This document shows, in pieces, positions 158 to 10,242 of a stretch of DNA of 10,242 nucleotides. The position numbers were made by a program, and so were the translations under genes. Under the pieces are notes generated by a model, which searched no databases, was not told the origin of the DNA, and was given only the letters and a program-made list of their open reading frames with translations. Positions within the stretch are counted from its first letter, which is position 1; every line of letters starts with the position of its first letter. Origin of the DNA: Promethearchaeota archaeon (GTDB lineage: Archaea; Asgardarchaeota; Lokiarchaeia; Sigyniarchaeales; SOKP01); NCBI GenBank assembly GCA_019058015.1, contig JAHLWH010000206.1, forward strand, positions 1-10,242, written 5' to 3'.

Positions 158-228
158 ATGAATACCAATAAATCAATAAATTAGGGAGGTTATTTAGAAT
201 AAAAAGTAATTAAGCTATACTAACACCA

Positions 229-313
229 ATGCATTACAATCGAGAACCTCACAAAGTTTATTCATTGATTTATCATTGAAGATCAAATGGGGAAACCAGC
301 TCATGAAGATTAA
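229..313 (+). pseudogene. tnpA: Internally deleted Y1 HUH transposase remnant
   Basis: 229-276 encodes MHYNREPHKVYSLIYH, matching the TnpA N-terminal H-x-V-Y-x-L-x-Y-H pattern. In another frame, 275-313 encodes IEDQMGKPAHED*, matching the C-terminal (Y)IExQ helix, and overlaps the tnpB ATG at 303. Confidence 0.8.
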
Positions 314-1466
314 TAAAGCGATTAAGATTCGTATCTATCCCAATAAATATCAACAAGAGCTATTAGACAAGACTTTTGGATGCTGTCGGTTACTTTGGAA
401 TCAGATGTTGGCGGAACGGAATGAGGTTTATCGGAGGCTTAAAGATAATCCCGAAATCCTAAGAAATTATAGATATAAAACAGAAAAAGACTATAAAACT
501 CGGTTTAAATTTATGAAAGAAGTCGACAGTAAGGCTCTACAATCCACTACTCGAAACCTCATTGAAGCTTTTAAGAACTTTTTTAATGGTTTGAAGGAAA
601 TCCGTAAGGTCGGGTACCCAAGATTCAAATCCAAGAAAAATAAACAATCGTACACGACTTACAACGTTAACAACAACATTAAAATTAATTTTGAGCAGAA
701 GCGTATCAAACTCCCAAAAATTAACATGTGGATCAAATATAGGGATGAGCGAGTCTTTGTTGAGCTGATTCGTCACGTCACCGTTTCGAAAACCAAGAGC
801 GGTAAGTATTACGTGGCAATTTTAGTTGAGCAAGAGCTTGATGTGTATCCCTTAACTCAAGTTCATGAAAATCGCATTGGAGCCTTTGACATGTCCGCTT
901 CTGAGTTTTTAGTAAGTGAAAAAGAGCATTATATTAATCCCCGTTTCTATCGAAGCGCTGAGGCGAAATTAAGACGACTACATCGACAATTATCTGGTAA
1001 AAAGAAAGGATCGAAGAATCAATGGAAAGCACGTCTTCGGTTAGTACGCTATTATGAAAAAATTTATAAAAGAAAATACGATTGGGTTCATAAAAAAACT
1101 CTTGATCTTTCTCAAAGGCATGATGCGGTGATCTTGGAGGATCTCAATATTCGAGGAATGCAAAAATTTAATGGGGGATTATCCAAATCAGTTTCATTAG
1201 ATTTTTCATGGCATCAATTCAAGACTTTATTGGAATATAAGCTAAGATGGCGAGGAAAACATTATCAAGAAGTAGATCGGTTTTTTCCTTCAAGTAAAAT
1301 GTGTTCTGTCTGCGGTCATAAAAATGAGAACTTAACATTAGCAGATCGAGAATGGATTTGTCCCAAATGCGGCACTCAACACCAGCGGGATGAAAATGCT
1401 TCGGTGAATCTTAAGATGGAAGGAATACGCCTCTTACAAGAGAAAGATATCGTGGTCATTAGATGA
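303..1466 (+). CDS. tnpB: RNA-guided endonuclease TnpB (IS200/IS605 OrfB), about 387 aa
   Basis: N-terminal HTH (KAIKIRIYPNKYQQELLDKTFGCCRLLWN) and GYPRFKSKK. RuvC-I is GAFDMS, RuvC-II is VILEDL, the zinc finger is CSVC...CPKC and RuvC-III is RDENASVNL. ATG 303 is preferred over TTG 276, which lies inside the tnpA remnant. Confidence 0.95.
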   Translation: MKINKAIKIRIYPNKYQQELLDKTFGCCRLLWNQMLAERNEVYRRLKDNPEILRNYRYKTEKDYKTRFKFMKEVDSKALQSTTRNLIEAFKNFFNGLKEIRKVGYPRFKSKKNKQSYTTYNVNNNIKINFEQKRIKLPKINMWIKYRDERVFVELIRHVTVSKTKSGKYYVAILVEQELDVYPLTQVHENRIGAFDMSASEFLVSEKEHYINPRFYRSAEAKLRRLHRQLSGKKKGSKNQWKARLRLVRYYEKIYKRKYDWVHKKTLDLSQRHDAVILEDLNIRGMQKFNGGLSKSVSLDFSWHQFKTLLEYKLRWRGKHYQEVDRFFPSSKMCSVCGHKNENLTLADREWICPKCGTQHQRDENASVNLKMEGIRLLQEKDIVVIR

Positions 1467-1605
1467 TAACTCACCTACCGTGGGAACCACGGGAAGTCAC
1501 GCTTGTGGAGATCGTGTAAGACGTCCTTTTGGATGCAGTGGTCGAAGAAACAAGAATCCATCACCTGAAGGTGATGGTAGTTCAAAATAAAAACAGAAAT
1601 TATAA
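1467..1605 (+). ncRNA. Predicted TnpB omegaRNA (reRNA): scaffold to 1585 plus a guide of about 16-20 nt from the flank (AATAAAAACAGAAATTATAA)
   Basis: GC-richer structured tract after tnpB. It has the hairpin CCGTGG-GAA-CCACGG (1478-1492), complementary CTTGT/ACAAG segments, CGTCC-TTTT-GGATG and the terminal right-end hairpin. The 5' boundary is uncertain and may extend into tnpB. Confidence 0.75.
1554..1585 (+). repeat. IS right-end guide (GAAT), hairpin and cleavage site (TCAA)
   Basis: GAAT-CCATCACC-TGAA-GGTGATGG-TAGT-TCAA, with a perfect 8-bp stem. Confidence 0.9.
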
Positions 1606-1633
1606 CATAGTTGATGTATGAAATAAATTTTGC

Positions 1634-1656
1634 ATATTCAAAACTTCTTTGAATAT
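1634..1656. terminator. Possible hairpin or operator between convergent genes
   Basis: ATATTCAAA-ACTTC-TTTGAATAT is a perfect 9-bp inverted repeat just after the reconstructed stop at 1621. It is AT-rich, so it could be chance. Confidence 0.25.
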
Positions 1657-1710
1657 TATTTCAAATTAGAGAAATAAATATAAAAATATATTTTTTTAGA
1701 TTTATATCGG

Positions 1711-1846
1711 TTATTTCACGAAAAATTATCAATATTACTAAATTACAAATTCCTATGCTTTAAGATTTTCCTATAATTTTATTCAAGATTAGGCATTTTA
1801 TTGTATATTTCTTCCATTATATCTCTTAGAAAAATGATAAATTTAT
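1711..1846. repeat. 136-bp direct repeat, copy 1: an orphan copy of the abiEii 3' end and its downstream DNA
   Basis: Identical to 4320-4455 except G1836 versus A4445. Its edge overlaps the stop codon of the PIN gene (1843-1845). Confidence 0.95.
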
Positions 1847-2271
1847 ACTGGATTATCAAAAGCGAGTAGACCTAAATGATCAAAAGAAAAAAATCTTTTA
1901 TCATACGTCAATAGATAATTAGGTTCAATAACAAAATAAAATGAAAAGATAATTGAATCAACTACGCTTAAATCTTCATATTTTTTAAATACCCTTATCG
2001 CTTCATTAAACAAATCTTTAGAGGTATAAAATATATCAATTCTTCTATCGTTCTGGAACAATTCAATTACTTCATTGATAGATTTAGGAAAATTTCTTCC
2101 TTTTCTTTTTAGAAAAGTTAATGTTTCAGAAATTATAAAATCGTTAATTATTATTTTTACATTATCTTGTTCTCCAAGCCAATCAAAAAAATATTTACCT
2201 TTTTGATGATATTTATCTTTTTTAAGATAAACTGCAATCCATACACATGAATCTACTATGATTTTCTTCAT
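1843..2271 (-). CDS. vapC: PIN-domain ribonuclease, VapC-type toxin
   Basis: 142 aa with the canonical acidic tetrad in IIVDSCVWIA, IISETLTFL, LSVVDSII and LLTYDKRF. Confidence 0.9.
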   Translation of the reverse strand: MKKIIVDSCVWIAVYLKKDKYHQKGKYFFDWLGEQDNVKIIINDFIISETLTFLKRKGRNFPKSINEVIELFQNDRRIDIFYTSKDLFNEAIRVFKKYEDLSVVDSIIFSFYFVIEPNYLLTYDKRFFSFDHLGLLAFDNPV

Positions 2272-2301
2272 TTGTTTTTAATAACGTATTTTTTGTATAG
2301 A

Positions 2302-3078
2302 TTAAGTAATGAAGTCATGGTCTAATGCTCCATCAGTCTCATCTTCTGAATCAATCAATCCAACAAAATTTCTTAAATTATATTTTATTAGGTGTTCTTT
2401 TTCCATTTTCTCTAATTTTATTTTCTTTAATCTTTTTATCAGTTCAAGGTCTAATTCAGTTTTCTTTTTATTAATTTTTTTTAGTATTTTAGCCGGTTCT
2501 TTTATCTCATTTATTTCTAAGGATGAATATTCATCAATTTTTTTAATTTCTGACGTAGGATCTATTATTGAATTATTTGAAATTAATCCTTTAAAAAATA
2601 AGAAATAGGAATTATCTTTGAAATCCAAATCGAATTCGGAAACTTCTTTTTCATCCTGTAAATCTTTTATTTTTTCAAATTCTCTCTTCCTAAATGAATT
2701 AGTATTAATTTCTTCTTGTATTTTTAAATTTTTAAAATATAAATCACTTGAGGAATGAAAATCCGAAAGTTTATCAACATCATTAAGTATTCCTTTTATT
2801 ATTTTATATTTATTGATCTTTTTTTCTTTATCAAACTTCTCATCAAATAAATCTTTACCTTTTTTGGAAGATCTTCTACGAATAAGTTCCAATTTTTTCT
2901 TTTTGAATCTATCTAAACGATATGATAAATCTAAATCTTTAATTATTTGAAAATACGTTTCTATTATCAGATCTCCAATATTATTGATAATTTCATTGGT
3001 GGAATGTTCAGGATTCATGTCTTTTAAAAATCCAAAAATATCAATAATGTTGTCATTTACAGAACCTGATTCTGTCAT
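2302..3078 (-). CDS. Hypothetical highly charged protein (258 aa) with a VapB-like acidic C-terminal tail; possible extended antitoxin
   Basis: Long ORF with an ATGA overlap with the upstream gene (3075-3078) and GGAGG upstream of the start. It ends 30 nt before vapC. The C-terminus LRNFVGLIDSEDETDGALDHDFIT resembles archaeal antitoxin tails (recalled pattern, not searched). Confidence 0.7.
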   Translation of the reverse strand: MTESGSVNDNIIDIFGFLKDMNPEHSTNEIINNIGDLIIETYFQIIKDLDLSYRLDRFKKKKLELIRRRSSKKGKDLFDEKFDKEKKINKYKIIKGILNDVDKLSDFHSSSDLYFKNLKIQEEINTNSFRKREFEKIKDLQDEKEVSEFDLDFKDNSYFLFFKGLISNNSIIDPTSEIKKIDEYSSLEINEIKEPAKILKKINKKKTELDLELIKRLKKIKLEKMEKEHLIKYNLRNFVGLIDSEDETDGALDHDFIT

Positions 3079-3959
3079 TTATTTTCTCCCTCCAATTTTG
3101 AGGATATCAAATCAGATACCATTTCCCTTAAATCTTCTTTAACTATTTCAGGCATTGAAAAAGATTTTTCGATAAATTGGGGCTTTGGAAGTTCTAATAA
3201 CCGAATAAACATAAATCTCCATTCTCTACATACTTCAAAAATTAAATTGACTGTGGATTTTATATATTCATCGTTAATTTCAAATGATTCTATATTATTT
3301 GTTAGTTTTTCTTTATATTCAAAATATAATTTTTTCCATTTTTCTATTTTGCTTTCTGAAATTAAAATATACCTAAAATATTCTGAGAGTCTTCCAAAGA
3401 AACTCAAAAGCGTTTTTAATATTAATTGTTGACTTACAAAGCCAAAAGTTCTAATTATTCGGTTAAATTCACTTAAAATTCCATAAACTAAAACATCTAA
3501 GTTATGTGGCATCTCTTGATTTTTAATTTCGTCTTTAAAGGTATTTAATATGTATTTTGTGATATAAATTGAAAATGATTTATTTTCTTCATAAACTTCC
3601 ATCTCAGAAGTAATAATTTTTCTGAATTCATTATAATATTCGGAATATTTGCTTAAAATATAATTGATATCTGACTCATTTTTATTTTCTAGAAAATCCT
3701 CAACCATATTATGTAGATTTTCCTTGGCATCATCCAGAGCTATTTTTTTATTTTCAAAGAATCGATAATCGAAGGTAACATCCTTAAGGATAGTTCCAAT
3801 TAATGTATATTTTTTAGACTCTAAAATTACAGCGTCAGTTATTAAACGATTAGATATTATATTGCAAAAACCATAATCGTTCTTTTCTAATCCCTTTAAA
3901 TAAGACTTTAAGTCTTCTATTAGAATATTATTATAAATATTAATCAATTCATTTGACAT
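3075..3959 (-). CDS. Hypothetical protein (294 aa), probably mostly alpha-helical; first gene of the three-gene unit
   Basis: An ORF this long is unlikely by chance in such AT-rich DNA, and it is translationally coupled to the next gene. No catalytic motif was recognised. Confidence 0.75.
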   Translation of the reverse strand: MSNELINIYNNILIEDLKSYLKGLEKNDYGFCNIISNRLITDAVILESKKYTLIGTILKDVTFDYRFFENKKIALDDAKENLHNMVEDFLENKNESDINYILSKYSEYYNEFRKIITSEMEVYEENKSFSIYITKYILNTFKDEIKNQEMPHNLDVLVYGILSEFNRIIRTFGFVSQQLILKTLLSFFGRLSEYFRYILISESKIEKWKKLYFEYKEKLTNNIESFEINDEYIKSTVNLIFEVCREWRFMFIRLLELPKPQFIEKSFSMPEIVKEDLREMVSDLISSKLEGENK

Positions 3960-4319
3960 TTTTAATTATTCTTATTTTTAAATACTATTTTTAATAAAAA
4001 TGTCGTTATTTAAAAATTTAATTTGATTTTGACTTAATTTTACTTTGATAATTAGTATTATCAAATATAAATCAATTTTTTTTGTTGTTTTTATTTTATT
4101 ATGTTAAAATTAAATTAATGTATTTTTTATTAAATATTATAACTGAAATTAAAAAATCTTAGATTTGTTTTAAGATTTTGAAAATTTCCCAAAAAGTATA
4201 ATTTTACGGAAAAATGTTTATCTTCGAAGAAATTCAAGATTTTTATTATTAAATATTTAAATTTCAGTTAAATTATAATTCGCATCATGACATTGATATA
4301 AAATGAAACATAATAACAA

Positions 4320-4455
4320 TTATTTCACGAAAAATTATCAATATTACTAAATTACAAATTCCTATGCTTTAAGATTTTCCTATAATTTTATTCAAGATTA
4401 GGCATTTTATTGTATATTTCTTCCATTATATCTCTTAGAAAAATAATAAATTTAT
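4320..4455. repeat. 136-bp direct repeat, copy 2, containing the last ~21 codons and stop of abiEii plus 68 bp downstream
   Basis: Matches 1711-1846 at a constant offset of 2609 with a single mismatch. Confidence 0.95.
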
Positions 4456-5332
4456 CAATAAAATCATAAAATTCTGTATCATCAATTTTTATAAGTAATA
4501 ATTTTTTTTCTTCACCCCATTCGAAAATATCTCCTGAAATAATCATTTTTTTATTTTCTTTTAAATTTTTTTTGTATTTTTCATAGAGATTTAAGGAAAA
4601 TAAAGTCTTTTTGATAATGTAGTTTCTTATCTTTTTAAAATCAATTGGATTCTTTTTTAGTATAATATATATATCGATAAAATCTCCAGGTTTTGGACTC
4701 ATTCTTGTAAGAATAGCCCTAACTTTTTCGCAAAATATTTCTCTAATATTATATATTGGAAATGTTATTATTTTCGAGAATTCTTTAACCTCATAGGGAT
4801 ATAAAAATTTAAGCTCTTTATTTTCTGGAATTATACTTTGTAGTTTTCCTAATTTAGGTTTAAATTTTAGACATTCAATAAAATTAATTTGGATTTTTAT
4901 ATACATTTCAATATTTAAAATTTCAGAGATGAAATATAATTTAAAAGAAACCATTTTATTTCCACCACCAAATTCAAAATATCTTTCATTAGATTTATTA
5001 GCAACAAAATCCAAATTGTTTTTTTTACATATCTCTTCAATTATTAGGGCAATTTTGTCAATTAATCCGGACAAATCTCTTCTTAATTGATTTGCTGATT
5101 TATTTTTAAATACATTTTGATTTCTCCATGTAAAATCTATATCCTTAGAGAATCTATAATAATCAAAATAATTTTTTATTAGGCATGTTCCACCCTTAAA
5201 TAAAAAATTTCTACAAAAAAATTCATTTTGAGAAAGTGCAAAAAGAAGTTTGCTAAGTAATAAATCTACTTCTATTAATTCTCTATGTTCATTCTTCAGT
5301 AATTTACTTAATTCATCAATAAATTTCTTCAA
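4388..5332 (-). CDS. abiEii: AbiEii/AbiGii-family nucleotidyltransferase toxin (type IV TA, DUF1814-like)
   Basis: Motifs FLFKGGTCL, YYRFSKDIDF and EIFCEKVRAILTR...DFIDIY. The TTG start overlaps the abiEi TGA stop (TTGA, 5329-5332). Confidence 0.9.
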   Translation of the reverse strand: MKKFIDELSKLLKNEHRELIEVDLLLSKLLFALSQNEFFCRNFLFKGGTCLIKNYFDYYRFSKDIDFTWRNQNVFKNKSANQLRRDLSGLIDKIALIIEEICKKNNLDFVANKSNERYFEFGGGNKMVSFKLYFISEILNIEMYIKIQINFIECLKFKPKLGKLQSIIPENKELKFLYPYEVKEFSKIITFPIYNIREIFCEKVRAILTRMSPKPGDFIDIYIILKKNPIDFKKIRNYIIKKTLFSLNLYEKYKKNLKENKKMIISGDIFEWGEEKKLLLIKIDDTEFYDFIDKFIIFLRDIMEEIYNKMPNLE

Positions 5333-5958
5333 AATATTTCCTCAATTATATTCTTTACTGAATTAGGATAATTTTTAATATAATTTTTAATTTTTTTTTC
5401 TGATATATTTTTTAAATATTCAGATAAATCAATTATAATCTTTTTTCTAGGTTTGCTATTATATACCCAGAGATAAATAAAATCAAGAATAGTTTTTTCT
5501 AAGTCTGAATATCTAAATCCATTCTCTATTATTCCAAAATTGAATAAATTAGGTTTTAATTTTATAAATTTGAATTTGATACTGTTAATGTTTATTGGTT
5601 TATTTCTATACAAATTCTCACTTATAATATAATTTATAGTGAAATATTCGTGAGTCATATTATTTAATTTTAAAGCTGTATATAGACCAAAGTACCAATT
5701 CTTTATACCTTTTAAATCAAGACCTTTCGAAACAAGTTCTAAATTAGAATATTTTTTTAAGCCAAATTTCAATTCTTCTAAATTTTTAACATAAAAAATT
5801 CCTCTAAAAATTCTTAAAAGATATCCTCTCGAAATAAAATACCGAATTATATTATTATAATTTAAATTGAAATATTCGCAGTATTCTATAATTTCACTGG
5901 ATTTTATGAATTCTTTACCTTCAATATAAAACTTTTTTAAAAGAAATGTAGATTTCAT
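5329..5958 (-). CDS. abiEi: AbiEi-family antitoxin / transcriptional regulator (type IV TA)
   Basis: N-terminal wHTH ending GYLLRIFRGIFYV, then WYFGLYTALKLNNMT and YSDLEKTILDFIY. It is coupled to the downstream nucleotidyltransferase. Confidence 0.85.
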   Translation of the reverse strand: MKSTFLLKKFYIEGKEFIKSSEIIEYCEYFNLNYNNIIRYFISRGYLLRIFRGIFYVKNLEELKFGLKKYSNLELVSKGLDLKGIKNWYFGLYTALKLNNMTHEYFTINYIISENLYRNKPININSIKFKFIKLKPNLFNFGIIENGFRYSDLEKTILDFIYLWVYNSKPRKKIIIDLSEYLKNISEKKIKNYIKNYPNSVKNIIEEIF

Positions 5959-6001
5959 TTATATCACAATGTTATATTTTTTATTACATTATGATATAAA
6001 T
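5957..6001. promoter_or_regulatory. 20-bp inverted repeat, putative AbiEi autoregulatory operator
   Basis: ATTTATATCACAATGTTATA (5957-5976) matches the reverse complement of 5982-6001 (ATTTATATCATAATGTAATA) at 18/20 positions with a 5-nt spacer. It abuts the abiEi start codon and overlaps TATA-like TTTATA elements on the minus strand. Confidence 0.7.
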
Positions 6002-6117: not shown

Positions 6118-7485
6118 GTGAACATGAATAATTTAGTTAAAATTTTGGACATTTATGGACAAGATTATTACGTGTGTTCTAAGTGTCTTGGAAGGCTTTT
6201 CGCTGTTTTGGGTTCCGGACTTACAAATAAGACGAGAGGTGAGTCATTATTATTAGCCTTAACCTTAGAACTCCACAGAAAGATATTCTCAAAAGAACAA
6301 GATATTTCAAATGAAGGTTTAGAGGGAATAAAAATCCTTGCGAAAAAAGCTAATTACATAATTGCTCAAAATATCTTACGGAACAAAGATATTAAATTCC
6401 AACAATTTGATGATTCAAAAAAATGTTATTTATGTCAGGGTGTTTTTGATAATTTAAATCAATATGCATCAAAAGCAATGGTAGAATCTCAAGAAATTGA
6501 GTTTGAAAATTTTTTAGTTGGTTGTAGTTGTGATTTTATTATCAACAAAGAAGATAAATTTAAATCGGAATTTAACCTAACATATTCTGAATCCTTTAAA
6601 AATCATTTCAACCGAGAAGTAGGAAAACTTATTGAGAAAGGCATTACGAGACCAGTCGAATTTAAAAATCCTGAAATTTTATTTATTTTTAACCTCTATT
6701 ATGAGAAATTTAATTTATCTCTCCAAATTAACCCTCTTTTTATTTATGGCAGATATAGAAAATTTGAGCGAGGGATACCTCAAACTCATTGGTTCTGCAG
6801 AAATTGTAGGGGTCAAGGTTGTAAAGAGTGTAATGGAACAGGTAAACAATATCCAACGAGTGTAGAAGAGAAGATCTCTGATTTATTTGTAAAATATTCG
6901 AAAGCATCAGATTCAAAATTTCACGGAGCAGGACGAGAGGATATTGACGCTAGAATGTTAGGAAGTGGCAGACCTTTTGTTTTGCAATTAATTCAGCCAA
7001 AAATCAGAAAACTTGACCTTCGAAAATTGGAAAAAAAAGTTAATAAAAAAAATAAAAAGAAAGTTGAGATTTCTAATTTAAAATTTAGCACTCGCAGAAA
7101 AATGATTAATTTAAAGGCCAATGCAGAGTTTTCAAAAAAAATTTATCGAGCTTTTGTAGAGTTTGATGAAGATATTAATCAATCAATTTTTAAAGAGAAA
7201 TTAAATAAGTTAAAAGAGCAATTAGAAAATAAAATAATTTTACAAAAAACACCACAAAGAGTATTGCATAGAAGGGCGGATTTAACTCGTAAAAAAAAAG
7301 TATTTGAAATTAATGGTTCTTTAATTAATTCGAAACATGCTAATTTTACTATAAAAACCATTGGTGGAACATACATAAAAGAGTTAATTAATGGCGATGG
7401 GGGAAGGACAACACCGTCTTTAACTGAAATATTTGGTTTCCAATGTATATGTAAAGAATTAGACGTATTAAATGTAGAATATTAA
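6118..7485 (+). CDS. pus10: tRNA pseudouridine(54/55) synthase Pus10
   Basis: N-terminal CxxCLGR and CxxC, a THUMP-like region, GRYRKFERGIPQTHW, catalytic FHGAGREDIDARMLGSGRPF, QKTPQRVLHRR and GGTYIKELINGDGGRTTPS. The start is GTG 6118 or ATG 6124. Confidence 0.97.
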   Translation: MNMNNLVKILDIYGQDYYVCSKCLGRLFAVLGSGLTNKTRGESLLLALTLELHRKIFSKEQDISNEGLEGIKILAKKANYIIAQNILRNKDIKFQQFDDSKKCYLCQGVFDNLNQYASKAMVESQEIEFENFLVGCSCDFIINKEDKFKSEFNLTYSESFKNHFNREVGKLIEKGITRPVEFKNPEILFIFNLYYEKFNLSLQINPLFIYGRYRKFERGIPQTHWFCRNCRGQGCKECNGTGKQYPTSVEEKISDLFVKYSKASDSKFHGAGREDIDARMLGSGRPFVLQLIQPKIRKLDLRKLEKKVNKKNKKKVEISNLKFSTRRKMINLKANAEFSKKIYRAFVEFDEDINQSIFKEKLNKLKEQLENKIILQKTPQRVLHRRADLTRKKKVFEINGSLINSKHANFTIKTIGGTYIKELINGDGGRTTPSLTEIFGFQCICKELDVLNVEY

Positions 7486-7573: not shown

Positions 7574-7807
7574 GTGCAATCCGAAAAAAGTTTGGAACGA
7601 TATACCCCTGATTTTAAGTCTATGATCCAGATCTTTATTTTTAATAGCTTAGGATTCTTTTTTTTAGAATTTATTATTCAATATTTTGCAAGTCAACAAT
7701 TAAATGCAACTGGTACGCAAATGGGTTTAATATTTTCCGTTCATGTTATTGGAAACCTGACGAGTTCTTTTTTTACTGGTATTTTAACTAACCGAATTAA
7801 ATCCTAA
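7574..7807 (+). pseudogene. Truncated MFS transporter (first two transmembrane helices only)
   Basis: Two hydrophobic helices, the loop LNATGTQMGLIFS and a motif-A-like GILTNRIKS followed at once by a stop. A complete MFS protein would be about 400 aa, and I saw no continuation downstream. Confidence 0.7.
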
Positions 7808-8200: not shown

Positions 8201-8299
8201 TTAATTCACATTAAATTTCTTTCTCATTTTTTTGCGAATGTAAAATAATATAAGTAGAGAAATGCCAATAAGAAATATGAGTGGATATCCGGAAATCAC
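8201..8299 (-). other. Loki-CTERM-like C-terminal sorting/anchor signal
   Basis: VISGY, then a hydrophobic helix (PLIFLIGISLLILFYI), then a basic tail (RKKMRKK). Confidence 0.7.
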
Positions 8300-10242
8300 C
8301 TGCTCCTTAGAATTCACAGTTACAATTACCACATCTTCCAATACCTCATCTCCATTATGCGCTTCAATACGATATTCACAACTTCCAACTGGAAGACCAT
8401 CAATGTTGATGACTACAGGAACGCCAGACTCCCATGAATTTGTGTCGTTCAATGTATTATTTCTATACACATAATAAATGGGATTTAAAAGGGAAACTCC
8501 AGTAATAATCCAGGTTATATTATTTCCAGTACTTCCAACATAATAAGTAATATCAGCAGGATGTGAAATTTCTATTTCACGTATTACAGTTCGATTCCAC
8601 TTGCACTCATAAAACAATATTATATCCAAAGCATTTGGCTGGAATCCAGTTAAATCCTTATGGTGAGCATAATATAATTTTGGAATATATCCAAACGCCC
8701 AAGGCTTGTCTACTTCAACGATTTGTTCTTGAATCTTGTTGTATAACTCTTGTCTTTTAGCCTTATCGGTCTCTACAACCGCTTCTTCCATCAAGAGCTG
8801 AACTTGCGGATTGTTGTATTGTACTCCATTAGATGCAACAGTTCTATTAGTGAACAATGGATTAATATAATTGAACGGATCGTTATAATCGGATGACGCG
8901 CCAAACCAGAAAAGTTGTAGGTGATTTCTGGTAAGACCTTCCATTTCATCTAATCTATCAGTAAAGCCTGACCATGTCATACCAGCATCAATTACTTTGA
9001 TTCCAATTTCTGGAAGATTATCCTGTAATAATGGCAACATAGCTTCCCGCGTTGGATTACCTATATTATATGTATAATTATAAGGCAAAAGTGGAGAAGA
9101 GGTTGCCAAATCTCTCCAATCACTATTTGTTTCTAGATTAGACATATTTAACATCACCGTCTCCGTTGGGAACATTGATCTCATGAGAAGCCTTGCCGAA
9201 TAAAGATCGTAGACGGAAACGTTTAAGGAATCGTTAGCATATAAAATACCACTTGGAATTGGCGATTTCAACCTGACAGCATTACCTTCCCTAACTTCCT
9301 CGATAATATAGCTATAATTGATCGCAGATGAGATTGCATGCCTTATTGTTTTATTAATTCTTACATTATTCATCCCAAGGTATTGAATAACATAACCCTG
9401 ATTTCCGGAATCTAAGACTGTGATATTGGGATTTGCTTCAAAGGTTGGCAACCAAGAAGTTAAAGGATCCCTTAAAAAGTCTATATCACTTGCTAATAAT
9501 GCTGCATTTCTAGCGTTCGAATCAGTTATAACTGAGAATTTCATTGTTTCTATCTCTGCTTTCCCCCGCCAGTAATTTACAAAAACGTAGAAATTTACTT
9601 CAACACCTGAGACATATCCATCATACACAAAAGGACCAGTGCCAACTAAATCTCCAGTAGCAATATCTATGGGCACAGTTGGATTAGTCGATGAAGGAGA
9701 TAAAATGTAGGAAGGACTTATACATAATAATGCATGGAATGGTGCATAGGGAAAGTTTAACACAAATTTTATAGTATATTCATCAATAATTTCTGTTCTA
9801 TTAATAATGAGTTTGAAATTATAATAATATAACTCCTCAATATTACAAAAACCTTGCTCAATAAAATAAGCCAATCTATCGAATGAAAATTTTACGGCTG
9901 TTGCATTGAATTTAGTTCCGTCATGGAATGTCACGTTTTGTCTTAACGTAACCGTATAATCTTTTTTATCTAAAGACCATACACCCTGTGTAGTTGCAAG
10001 ATTCGGTACAATTTCAAGTGAGGGATCTGACAAATTATATCTATATAAACCCTCACAAACCTGATTAATAACATCAAATGAATATAGATCTTCTGAAACG
10101 TGCGGATCAAGATCTTTGGCTTTATACATAACTCCAAGGATAATCGTGCTTCTGGATGGTGCATCACCGGACAGCGATTTTGCATTATATTGATGGGAAT
10201 AAGTGACATCGTTAAAACTCATAGAAAGCGACAATATAATAA
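8201..10242 (-). CDS. ABC transporter substrate-binding protein, family 5 (OppA/DppA-like), with C-terminal Ig-like domain and membrane anchor; 5' end lies beyond the window
   Basis: Motifs DLDPH, VCEGLY, PNLA, YTVTLRQNVTFHDGTKFNATAVKFSFDR, VGTGPF, IRHAISSAIN and YNNPQV...RQELYNKIQ. The frame stays open from TTG 10234 to the window edge. Confidence 0.93.
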   Translation of the reverse strand, partial: IILSLSMSFNDVTYSHQYNAKSLSGDAPSRSTIILGVMYKAKDLDPHVSEDLYSFDVINQVCEGLYRYNLSDPSLEIVPNLATTQGVWSLDKKDYTVTLRQNVTFHDGTKFNATAVKFSFDRLAYFIEQGFCNIEELYYYNFKLIINRTEIIDEYTIKFVLNFPYAPFHALLCISPSYILSPSSTNPTVPIDIATGDLVGTGPFVYDGYVSGVEVNFYVFVNYWRGKAEIETMKFSVITDSNARNAALLASDIDFLRDPLTSWLPTFEANPNITVLDSGNQGYVIQYLGMNNVRINKTIRHAISSAINYSYIIEEVREGNAVRLKSPIPSGILYANDSLNVSVYDLYSARLLMRSMFPTETVMLNMSNLETNSDWRDLATSSPLLPYNYTYNIGNPTREAMLPLLQDNLPEIGIKVIDAGMTWSGFTDRLDEMEGLTRNHLQLFWFGASSDYNDPFNYINPLFTNRTVASNGVQYNNPQVQLLMEEAVVETDKAKRQELYNKIQEQIVEVDKPWAFGYIPKLYYAHHKDLTGFQPNALDIILFYECKWNRTVIREIEISHPADITYYVGSTGNNITWIITGVSLLNPIYYVYRNNTLNDTNSWESGVPVVINIDGLPVGSCEYRIEAHNGDEVLEDVVIVTVNSKEQVISGYPLIFLIGISLLILFYIRKKMRKKFNVN

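Follow-up and report, generated by a model that had tools for sequence, protein, structure and literature searches.

The 10,242-nt stretch of DNA analysed here ("the window": contig JAHLWH010000206.1, assembly GCA_019058015.1, from a Promethearchaeota archaeon of the Lokiarchaeia) carries on its minus strand three tightly spaced genes, called A, B and C in 5' to 3' order, that recur together at dozens of other loci and end in a predicted RNase. Judged by sequence comparison, they appear to form a tripartite unit of toxin-antitoxin (TA) type, built on two new protein families (A and B) with no known fold or function. The features of this cassette in the window are:

Gene A, 3075-3959, minus strand: 294 aa, acidic, modelled as all-helical; the constant component of the cassette
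Gene B, 2302-3078, minus strand: 258 aa; modular antitoxin candidate
Gene C, 1843-2271, minus strand: 142 aa; VapC-like PIN-domain RNase, toxin candidate
Leader, 3960-4319, no strand: 360 nt, AT-rich, non-coding, 5' of gene A and within the inserted segment
Direct repeat, copy 1, 1711-1846, no strand: 136 nt, relic abiEii end
Direct repeat, copy 2, 4320-4455, no strand: 136 nt, functional abiEii 3' end plus 68 nt downstream
Segment missing in a same-genus genome (G002), 1847-4455, no strand: 2,609 nt, the cassette plus one repeat copy

The stop codon of A and the start codon of B overlap in ATGA (gaaaataaATGAcag), and 30 nt separate the B stop codon (TAA) from the ATG of C. A preliminary description of this DNA had given exactly these coordinates for the three genes (1843-3959), and had seen in them two large proteins that it could not place, followed by a PIN nuclease with four acidic residues; both observations stand, as set out below. 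The leader presumably holds the cassette promoter.

Genes of the A family were gathered from 41 related genomes (7 with a match), 400 genomes of the phylum (16 with a match, and again 16 of 400 when the search was repeated with a broader profile) and metagenome contigs (24 loci); a profile search of genome contigs with a 37-row A alignment gave 3 loci. When 43 loci were scanned with purpose-built profiles, 42 had an A open reading frame (ORF), and 39 were distinct once duplicates were removed (L029, L030 and L031 are the same as L003, L005 and L012). At two of the 39 the contig ends within 230 nt of A, leaving 37 for gene order. In all 37, B follows A directly, the gap ranging from -41 to +37 nt; B is encoded separately in 36, and in L026 apparently as a 160-aa extension of A. 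The next gene is a PIN nuclease at 14 of the 37 loci and a HEPN nuclease at 16. Since the same gene order is found in dozens of independent loci, linkage goes far beyond chance. The A-B-nuclease trio is a conserved unit, and comparative genomics gives good support to the tripartite module proposed in the preliminary description: A, B and the nucleases co-occur wherever their neighborhoods can be examined, and A and B match no housekeeping family. One related locus, from the same taxonomic order as the window genome, belongs to Candidatus Harpocratesius repetitus (Promethearchaeota, class Promethearchaeia). What follows B at the 37 loci is:

Full-length PIN protein: 10 loci
PIN frame intact, without an ATG, GTG or TTG start: 1 locus (L005)
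PIN remnant: 3 loci (L026, L037, L038)
Full-length HEPN protein of PF05168 type: 15 loci
Split HEPN: 1 locus (L015)
Unrelated small protein: 3 loci (L002 and L018, one family; L024, another)
No third gene: 1 locus (L033)
Contig ends first: 3 loci

The type of B agrees with the type of toxin in 29 of 29 cases: all 13 PIN loci with a separate B have a PIN-type B, and all 16 HEPN loci a HEPN-type B, the two types having no detectable homology to each other. The B profiles were built from genome-derived loci; the independent test set is the 17 metagenome loci (7 PIN, 10 HEPN), and these were concordant in every case. The B of L022, the basal member of the HEPN clade, seems to combine a PIN-type N-domain with a HEPN-type C-domain, with moderate support (hhalign E 2e-4, probability 46%).

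A maximum likelihood tree of A was built from 33 rows; not among them are the three duplicates, L015, which is broken, and six loci that are partial or at a contig end (L043, L044, L047, L052, L054 and L055). In this tree the HEPN-linked As form one clade (100/99), with the PIN-linked As on the other side; L002 and L018, which have another third gene, and L033, which has none, are nested beside the window A (97/98), and L024 also falls within the PIN side. The B of L002 retains the N-domain of the window B (35% identity over residues 14-126, E 7.5e-13); in L002 and L018 the C-domain of B and the third gene are both different from those of the window. Exchange is seen most plainly in L049 and L050, which are 91% identical in A (dS, the synonymous divergence, 0.05), 65% in B (dS 0.40) and 67% in C (dS 0.93), a pattern indicating that the B-C pair was exchanged as a unit behind a conserved A. 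Taken as a whole, these comparisons show a toxin that is interchangeable (PIN, HEPN or others) behind a constant A. Purifying selection acts on all three genes: in three PIN-type pairs the ratio of nonsynonymous to synonymous divergence (dN/dS) is 0.05-0.31, with B the fastest-evolving. A separate observation is that one genome, G236, has two HEPN-type cassettes (L012 and L028), from different sub-clades of the A tree.

The product of gene C exceeds the curated cut-off of the PIN-domain family PF01850 (E 2.6e-9), and with the family profile its closest solved relative is the putative VapC AF_1683 (PDB 1w8i, E 1.7e-10). Against the NCBIfam VapC equivalog model it scores 16.9 bits, with a cut-off of 80, and is therefore better called PIN/VapC-like than an equivalog. 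Its four acidic residues, D7, E49, D105 and D124, are all present, as noted in the preliminary description; among six cassette PINs the first three are invariant, and D124 is found in five, including that of the window. None of A, B and C matches a PADLOC-DB v2.0.0 family at E<=1 (HMM scan only), and the neighboring AbiEi and AbiEii match strongly, so the expectation that this module would prove unclassified was borne out.

Decay affects the toxin first: at four loci the PIN gene is lost or truncated, with A and B intact. A related case is L005 (3181-3606, plus strand), in a closed Harpocratesius-type genome, where the PIN frame is intact and no ATG, GTG or TTG follows the preceding stop codon; possible causes are a sequencing error, silencing of the toxin or initiation at an unusual codon. 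At L018 (51-488, minus strand), L002 (3380-3682, plus strand) and L024 (86-694, minus strand), the third gene, in the toxin position, has no Pfam, PHROG or PDB-sequence match; these genes are candidates for at least two new toxin families. The Bs paired with them carry folded C-domains of their own, for example the "NWNGEGSKAF" region in L002 and L018.

Gene B has no match in Pfam or NCBIfam (E<=0.1), PADLOC-DB or PHROGs; a profile search of PDB sequences was empty, and no AbrB, ribbon-helix-helix (RHH), helix-turn-helix (HTH) or Phd antitoxin family was matched in Pfam or NCBIfam. A word-indexed search for relatives gave three matches, low-complexity words saturating the search. In the structural model a helical N-domain (residues 7-104) is confident, with a predicted local distance difference test score (pLDDT) of 80-92; the middle is disordered, in the whole protein 116 of the 258 residues (45%) fall below pLDDT 50, and the best match of the model in a VIA wide search is to coiled coils (Z 6.2). 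Residues 1-100 are basic, with an isoelectric point (pI) of 9.0-9.8 in nine of nine Bs; the last 40 residues are acidic (pI 4.6-5.3) in all six PIN-linked Bs, and the PINs themselves have a pI of 7.8-9.6. At the C-terminus the PIN-linked Bs have a common block that ends in [FIL][IVL]G[LFI][IV]D (FVGLID in the window). This architecture, in which a disordered middle and an acidic tail follow an N-domain that is helical and basic, is antitoxin-like, and is compatible with the extended antitoxin that the preliminary description had suggested.

Gene A, without a significant match in Pfam, NCBIfam, PADLOC-DB or PHROGs, founds a new protein family. An exhaustive profile search gave 258 clusters (at 50% identity) at E<=1e-3 and 204 at E<=1e-10; nearly all of the 150 clusters listed are stand-alone proteins of 270-310 aa, and a search for longer fused forms (537-2000 aa) found none, which by the tool's own rating is weak evidence. 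The AlphaFold2 model (pLDDT 86, predicted template modelling score 0.81) has 11 helices in two bundles and no strands. The protein is acidic (pI 5.12; family median 5.62, n=72), and in an alignment of 72 diverse members three residues, N37, R38 and R248, never vary, E121, Y123, E164, R167 and W247 being near-invariant.

Structural and profile comparisons place A near nothing familiar. Foldseek gave no match in the PDB at E<=0.001 and none in BFVD, and the ESM Atlas no usable match for A or for residues 1-115 of B. The VIA wide search gave a best Z of 12.2 (rmsd 3.1, 110 residues aligned), with a designed repeat protein and CheA P1/HPt four-helix bundles as matches, all confined to residues 1-117 of A and no stronger than the noise that the tool states for helical bundles; these searches speak against no particular family. 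In Pfam, 37 members of the A family gave scattered weak matches, INT1_R3 appearing in 7 of the 37 (best E 8.5e-4), and no HTH, RHH, AbrB or SecB match; no internal duplication was detected (hhalign probability 1.1%). Two candidate relationships gained little support. For A as a divergent HEPN protein, direct comparison of its profile with that of the cassette HEPNs gave an hhalign probability of 0.2%; there is no conserved histidine after R38 or R167, as the HEPN Rx4-6H motif would have, and no HEPN chain among the fold matches listed, leaving room for no more than a remote relationship. The other is a likeness of A-family residues 151-280 to the sigma-28 factor FliA (PDB 1rp3, E 0.0021, profile against PDB sequences), an entry that is also Foldseek rank 29 for A and the only one found by both routes; it is marginal, probably compositional, and was treated as chance.

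The three genes and their leader are bracketed by a 136-nt direct repeat with one mismatch, at 1711-1846 and 4320-4455; the genome has no further full copy of it. The repeat consists of the last 22 codons of abiEii and 68 nt downstream, so that the 1711-1846 copy, abutting the PIN stop codon, is a relic abiEii end. The same-genus genome G002 has the empty site: its TnpB-to-abiEii region is 98-99% identical to that of the window, with one repeat copy and no cassette (locus L060 1-1636 corresponds to window 211-1846 at 99.0% identity, and 1494-2514 to window 4313-5333 at 98.3%). The 2.6-kb unit was either gained by insertion with target duplication or lost by excision through the repeats. This presence/absence polymorphism between near-identical genomes shows the cassette to be mobile. 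No recombinase is encoded by the cassette.

Repeats of a similar kind bracket the trio together with one or two extra genes at L035 (1281-1495 and 5748-5962; 215 nt, 82% identity) and L051 (1813-1859 and 5809-5855; 47 nt, 91% identity), and may reflect the same mode of insertion. A bracketing repeat is absent from eight of the nine other loci scanned; L031 has only a 33-nt, 73%-identical pair that reaches into B and looks like chance. Flanking genes differ at all 16 of the longer loci examined, and include genes for Ras-like GTPases, MtrH, FTR, leucine-rich repeat proteins, AFOR and TFIIB. The distribution of the A family is patchy (the 16 of 400 phylum genomes given above), and even among the five genomes of the window's genus there is one PIN-type cassette (the window), one of HEPN type (G004), and three genomes without a match. 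All occurrences of the cassette known to date are from Asgard archaea or sediment metagenomes.

The other genes of the window are:

abiEii, 4388-5332, minus strand: AbiEii, PADLOC E 1.5e-54
abiEi, 5329-5958, minus strand: AbiEi, PADLOC E 2.9e-56
tnpB-like gene, 276-1466, plus strand: HTH_OrfB_IS605, OrfB_IS605 and Cas12f1-like TNB domains
Pus10 tRNA pseudouridine synthase, 6118-7485, plus strand: an ordinary neighbor, like the next two, and one that marks the host as archaeal
77-aa ORF, 7574-7807, plus strand: matches MFS_1 weakly, short of the curated cut-off; may be part of a broken gene
Family-5 solute-binding protein, 8201-10234, minus strand: 677 aa, hydrophobic C-terminal tail

The abiEii and abiEi genes overlap by 4 nt and lie directly upstream of the cassette, which sits in the duplicated abiEii 3' end. 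From 1500 to 6000 the G+C content is 16-26%, against 32-38% in the outer genes, so that the abiE genes and cassette together look like a small low-GC accessory island. The tnpB-like gene has no adjacent TnpA, and a copy about 99% identical is present in G002; no Rfam match was found in the whole window, including the region downstream of this gene.

Among known systems, the toxin-antitoxin-chaperone (TAC) modules are the closest functional precedent. In these, an extra segment on the antitoxin links HigBA, HicAB or MqsRA units to a single family of SecB-like chaperones (available portion of PMC5105189), and the chaperone can act as a phage sensor, in units that are recombinable (available portion of bioRxiv 10.1101/2024.02.24.581848). 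Like the TAC modules (HigBA1-SecB(TA) of M. tuberculosis, HigBAC of E. coli, CmdTAC), the cassette is a three-gene operon in which one constant accessory family is combined with unrelated TA units, A being found with PIN, HEPN and two other types of third gene; in both, the units are recombinable and the antitoxin, mostly without fixed structure, extends past its toxin-binding region, a predicted one in B. The differences are considerable. A is not SecB-like (no Pfam match, all-helical model) and is encoded first rather than last; the extra domain of B is N-terminal, about 100 aa long and folded, as opposed to the short C-terminal chaperone addiction (ChAD) peptide of TAC antitoxins; the toxins are PIN or HEPN proteins rather than HigB, HicA, MqsR or CmdT; and the hosts are Asgard archaea. 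Because A is not SecB-like, the cassette may be called TAC-like, but not a member of TAC.

Other comparisons capture parts of the cassette. VapB antitoxins are usually under about 100 aa. The cassette resembles VapBC in its PIN toxin with an intact acidic quartet, the acidic, disordered C-terminus of the preceding gene product, its tight spacing, patchy distribution and mobile context; it differs in the 258-aa length of B, which belongs to no known VapB family, and in the third, larger gene that is always present. Cassettes of the sister clade end in a small PF05168-type HEPN protein, as HEPN-MNT systems have, but their B is no minimal nucleotidyltransferase (no NTP_transf_2, Polbeta or other Pfam match), and gene A lies upstream. 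Hyperpromiscuous antitoxin domains and combinatorial TA networks (Panacea, NetFlax) likewise join one conserved partner to many unrelated toxin domains (available portion of PMC10440598); the promiscuous domain there lies within the antitoxin, whereas in the cassette a protein apart from the antitoxin is constant and the toxin-specific part of the antitoxin varies with the toxin. The omega-epsilon-zeta and paaR-paaA-parE operons also encode their third component first, but it is a small DNA-binding repressor, unlike the 294-aa acidic helical A, which lacks a DNA-binding signature. Full-text literature searches, together with the available portions of PMC12988326, PMC13700489 and PMC6393860, which deal with defence and dark matter in archaea or Asgard archaea, gave no description of the trio, supplements lying outside this scope. 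The interchangeable toxin, the presence/absence polymorphism and TAC as closest precedent all go beyond the preliminary description.

The reading favored here, with confidence slightly above even, is that the three genes are an autonomous, horizontally mobile cassette of TA type with a constant third component, working by a TAC-like mechanism. The fixed gene order, antitoxin-like B, intact PIN active site, toxin-first decay and mobility are the grounds for seeing B and C as a type II TA unit to which a constant gene A has been added. C would be the toxin, a VapC-like PIN RNase, and B its dedicated antitoxin: the acidic C-terminal segment of B, disordered alone, would fold onto the basic PIN protein and block it. 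The basic four-helix N-domain of B would be an add-on coupling it to A, to nucleic acid, or to both. A would be retained while the B-C "warhead" is swapped among PIN, HEPN or other toxins, and would bind the largely disordered antitoxin and stabilize or hold it; if A were diverted or B lost, as might happen on a viral or stress signal or when the cassette disappears, the RNase would be freed and growth arrested. From A-B binding onward these steps are inferred, as is the direction in which A would exert its control. A structure prediction of A against B plus C, run without controls, gave an ipSAE of 0.12 against a mark of 0.32, and counts neither way. The sensor or abortive-infection role raised in the preliminary description, and with it any antiviral function, is a hypothesis.

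Several points weigh against this reading. A-B binding, B-C binding and the toxicity of C are all predictions. The invariant and near-invariant polar residues of A look more like a ligand or catalytic site than the surface of a passive chaperone. Both A and B are intact at four loci that lack a working toxin, so the two together may serve some independent function. The PIN-type N-domain, the proposed coupler to A, is missing from most HEPN-clade Bs (185-194 aa), L022 being the exception, so either A contacts B elsewhere or coupling differs between the clades. The proposed A-B fusion in L026 is identified by position and a C-terminal LIGILGD motif, the extension failing to match the B profile (E 0.61). 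Cassette sequence was found in 16 DNA sequencing runs from 7 studies, with no RNA run listed. Finally, the AbiEi/AbiEii pair adjoining the window cassette, which the preliminary description took to fit a defence island, is confirmed; recognizable TA or defence genes stand beside only about 7 of 17 loci (the 16 longer loci and L007), namely:

HepT and MNT: L030
DUF4411 and a Peptidase_M78 protein: L037
Eco57I fragment: L036
RiboL-PSP HEPN: L050
DUF3800: L049 (333-779, plus strand) and L007 (212-1033, minus strand)
AbiE: the window

The two DUF3800 genes lie just upstream of HEPN-type cassettes, and may represent a recurrent neighbor.

Much of the same evidence bears on other interpretations. 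The conserved polar residues of A, which suggest an active site, the persistence of A and B where the nuclease is lost, and the position of B between A and the nuclease with two separable conserved ends would all be expected if A were an effector or second toxin, possibly an enzyme, with a bifunctional B whose N-domain neutralizes A and whose C-terminus neutralizes the nuclease, or if A and B were an autonomous pair to which nucleases have been appended. This is nonetheless unlikely: A matches no known toxin or enzyme fold and shows no HEPN likeness in the profile comparison, it is kept where most HEPN-clade Bs lack the N-domain, and it is the slowest-evolving and constant component, while in conflict systems the toxin is usually the part that is swapped. 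Alternatively, A could control transcription of the operon as a separate third component, the part played by omega in omega-epsilon-zeta and by PaaR in paaR-paaA-parE, leaving B as a pure toxin-binding antitoxin. Three-gene TA operons with a separate regulator do exist, gene A opens the operon and is coupled to B in translation, and the A profile has the weak match to sigma-28 FliA (PDB 1rp3, E 0.0021; Foldseek rank 29). That match is marginal and compositionally suspect, however, and an acidic protein of about 290 aa without an HTH, RHH or AbrB match makes a poorer nucleic-acid-binding candidate than the N-domain of B, with its pI of 9.0-9.8; a regulatory A is accordingly considered quite unlikely.

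Very improbable is a housekeeping role, in which A, B and the nuclease of Loki-type archaea would form a complex for RNA processing or RNA quality control. RNA maturation too employs PIN and HEPN domains, and several loci lie among housekeeping genes such as those for MtrH, FTR, AFOR and TFIIB. A housekeeping complex would not be expected in only 16 of 400 phylum genomes, absent from three of five in one genus and present or absent between genomes about 99% identical in the flanks; nor does it sit well with interchangeable nuclease types, frequent nuclease decay and variable flanks.

Within the favored reading, of a mobile TA-type cassette with a TAC-like mechanism, a more specific proposal is possible, if tentative and well short of an even chance: that A is a new sensor or holder, an all-helical, non-SecB analog of the TAC chaperone found mainly in the Loki-type class (Promethearchaeia) and set on interchangeable warheads (PIN, HEPN and at least two effectors of no recognized type). 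The 2.5-kb mobile units would then be undescribed archaeal abortive-infection or addiction cassettes, in which the N-R...E.Y...E..R...W-R site of A recognizes the antitoxin or a ligand from an invader. CRISPR and restriction-modification apart, the immunity and addiction systems of archaea have been poorly mapped, as the available portion of PMC12988326 states.

The cassette offers a clean, testable case: three genes in 2.5 kb, for which nature supplies both occupied and empty alleles as well as warhead swaps. In the prokaryotes most closely related to eukaryotes, it illustrates how different RNase toxins can be wired to one constant accessory protein. If A is indeed a sensor, the logic of TAC would have arisen independently with unrelated proteins.

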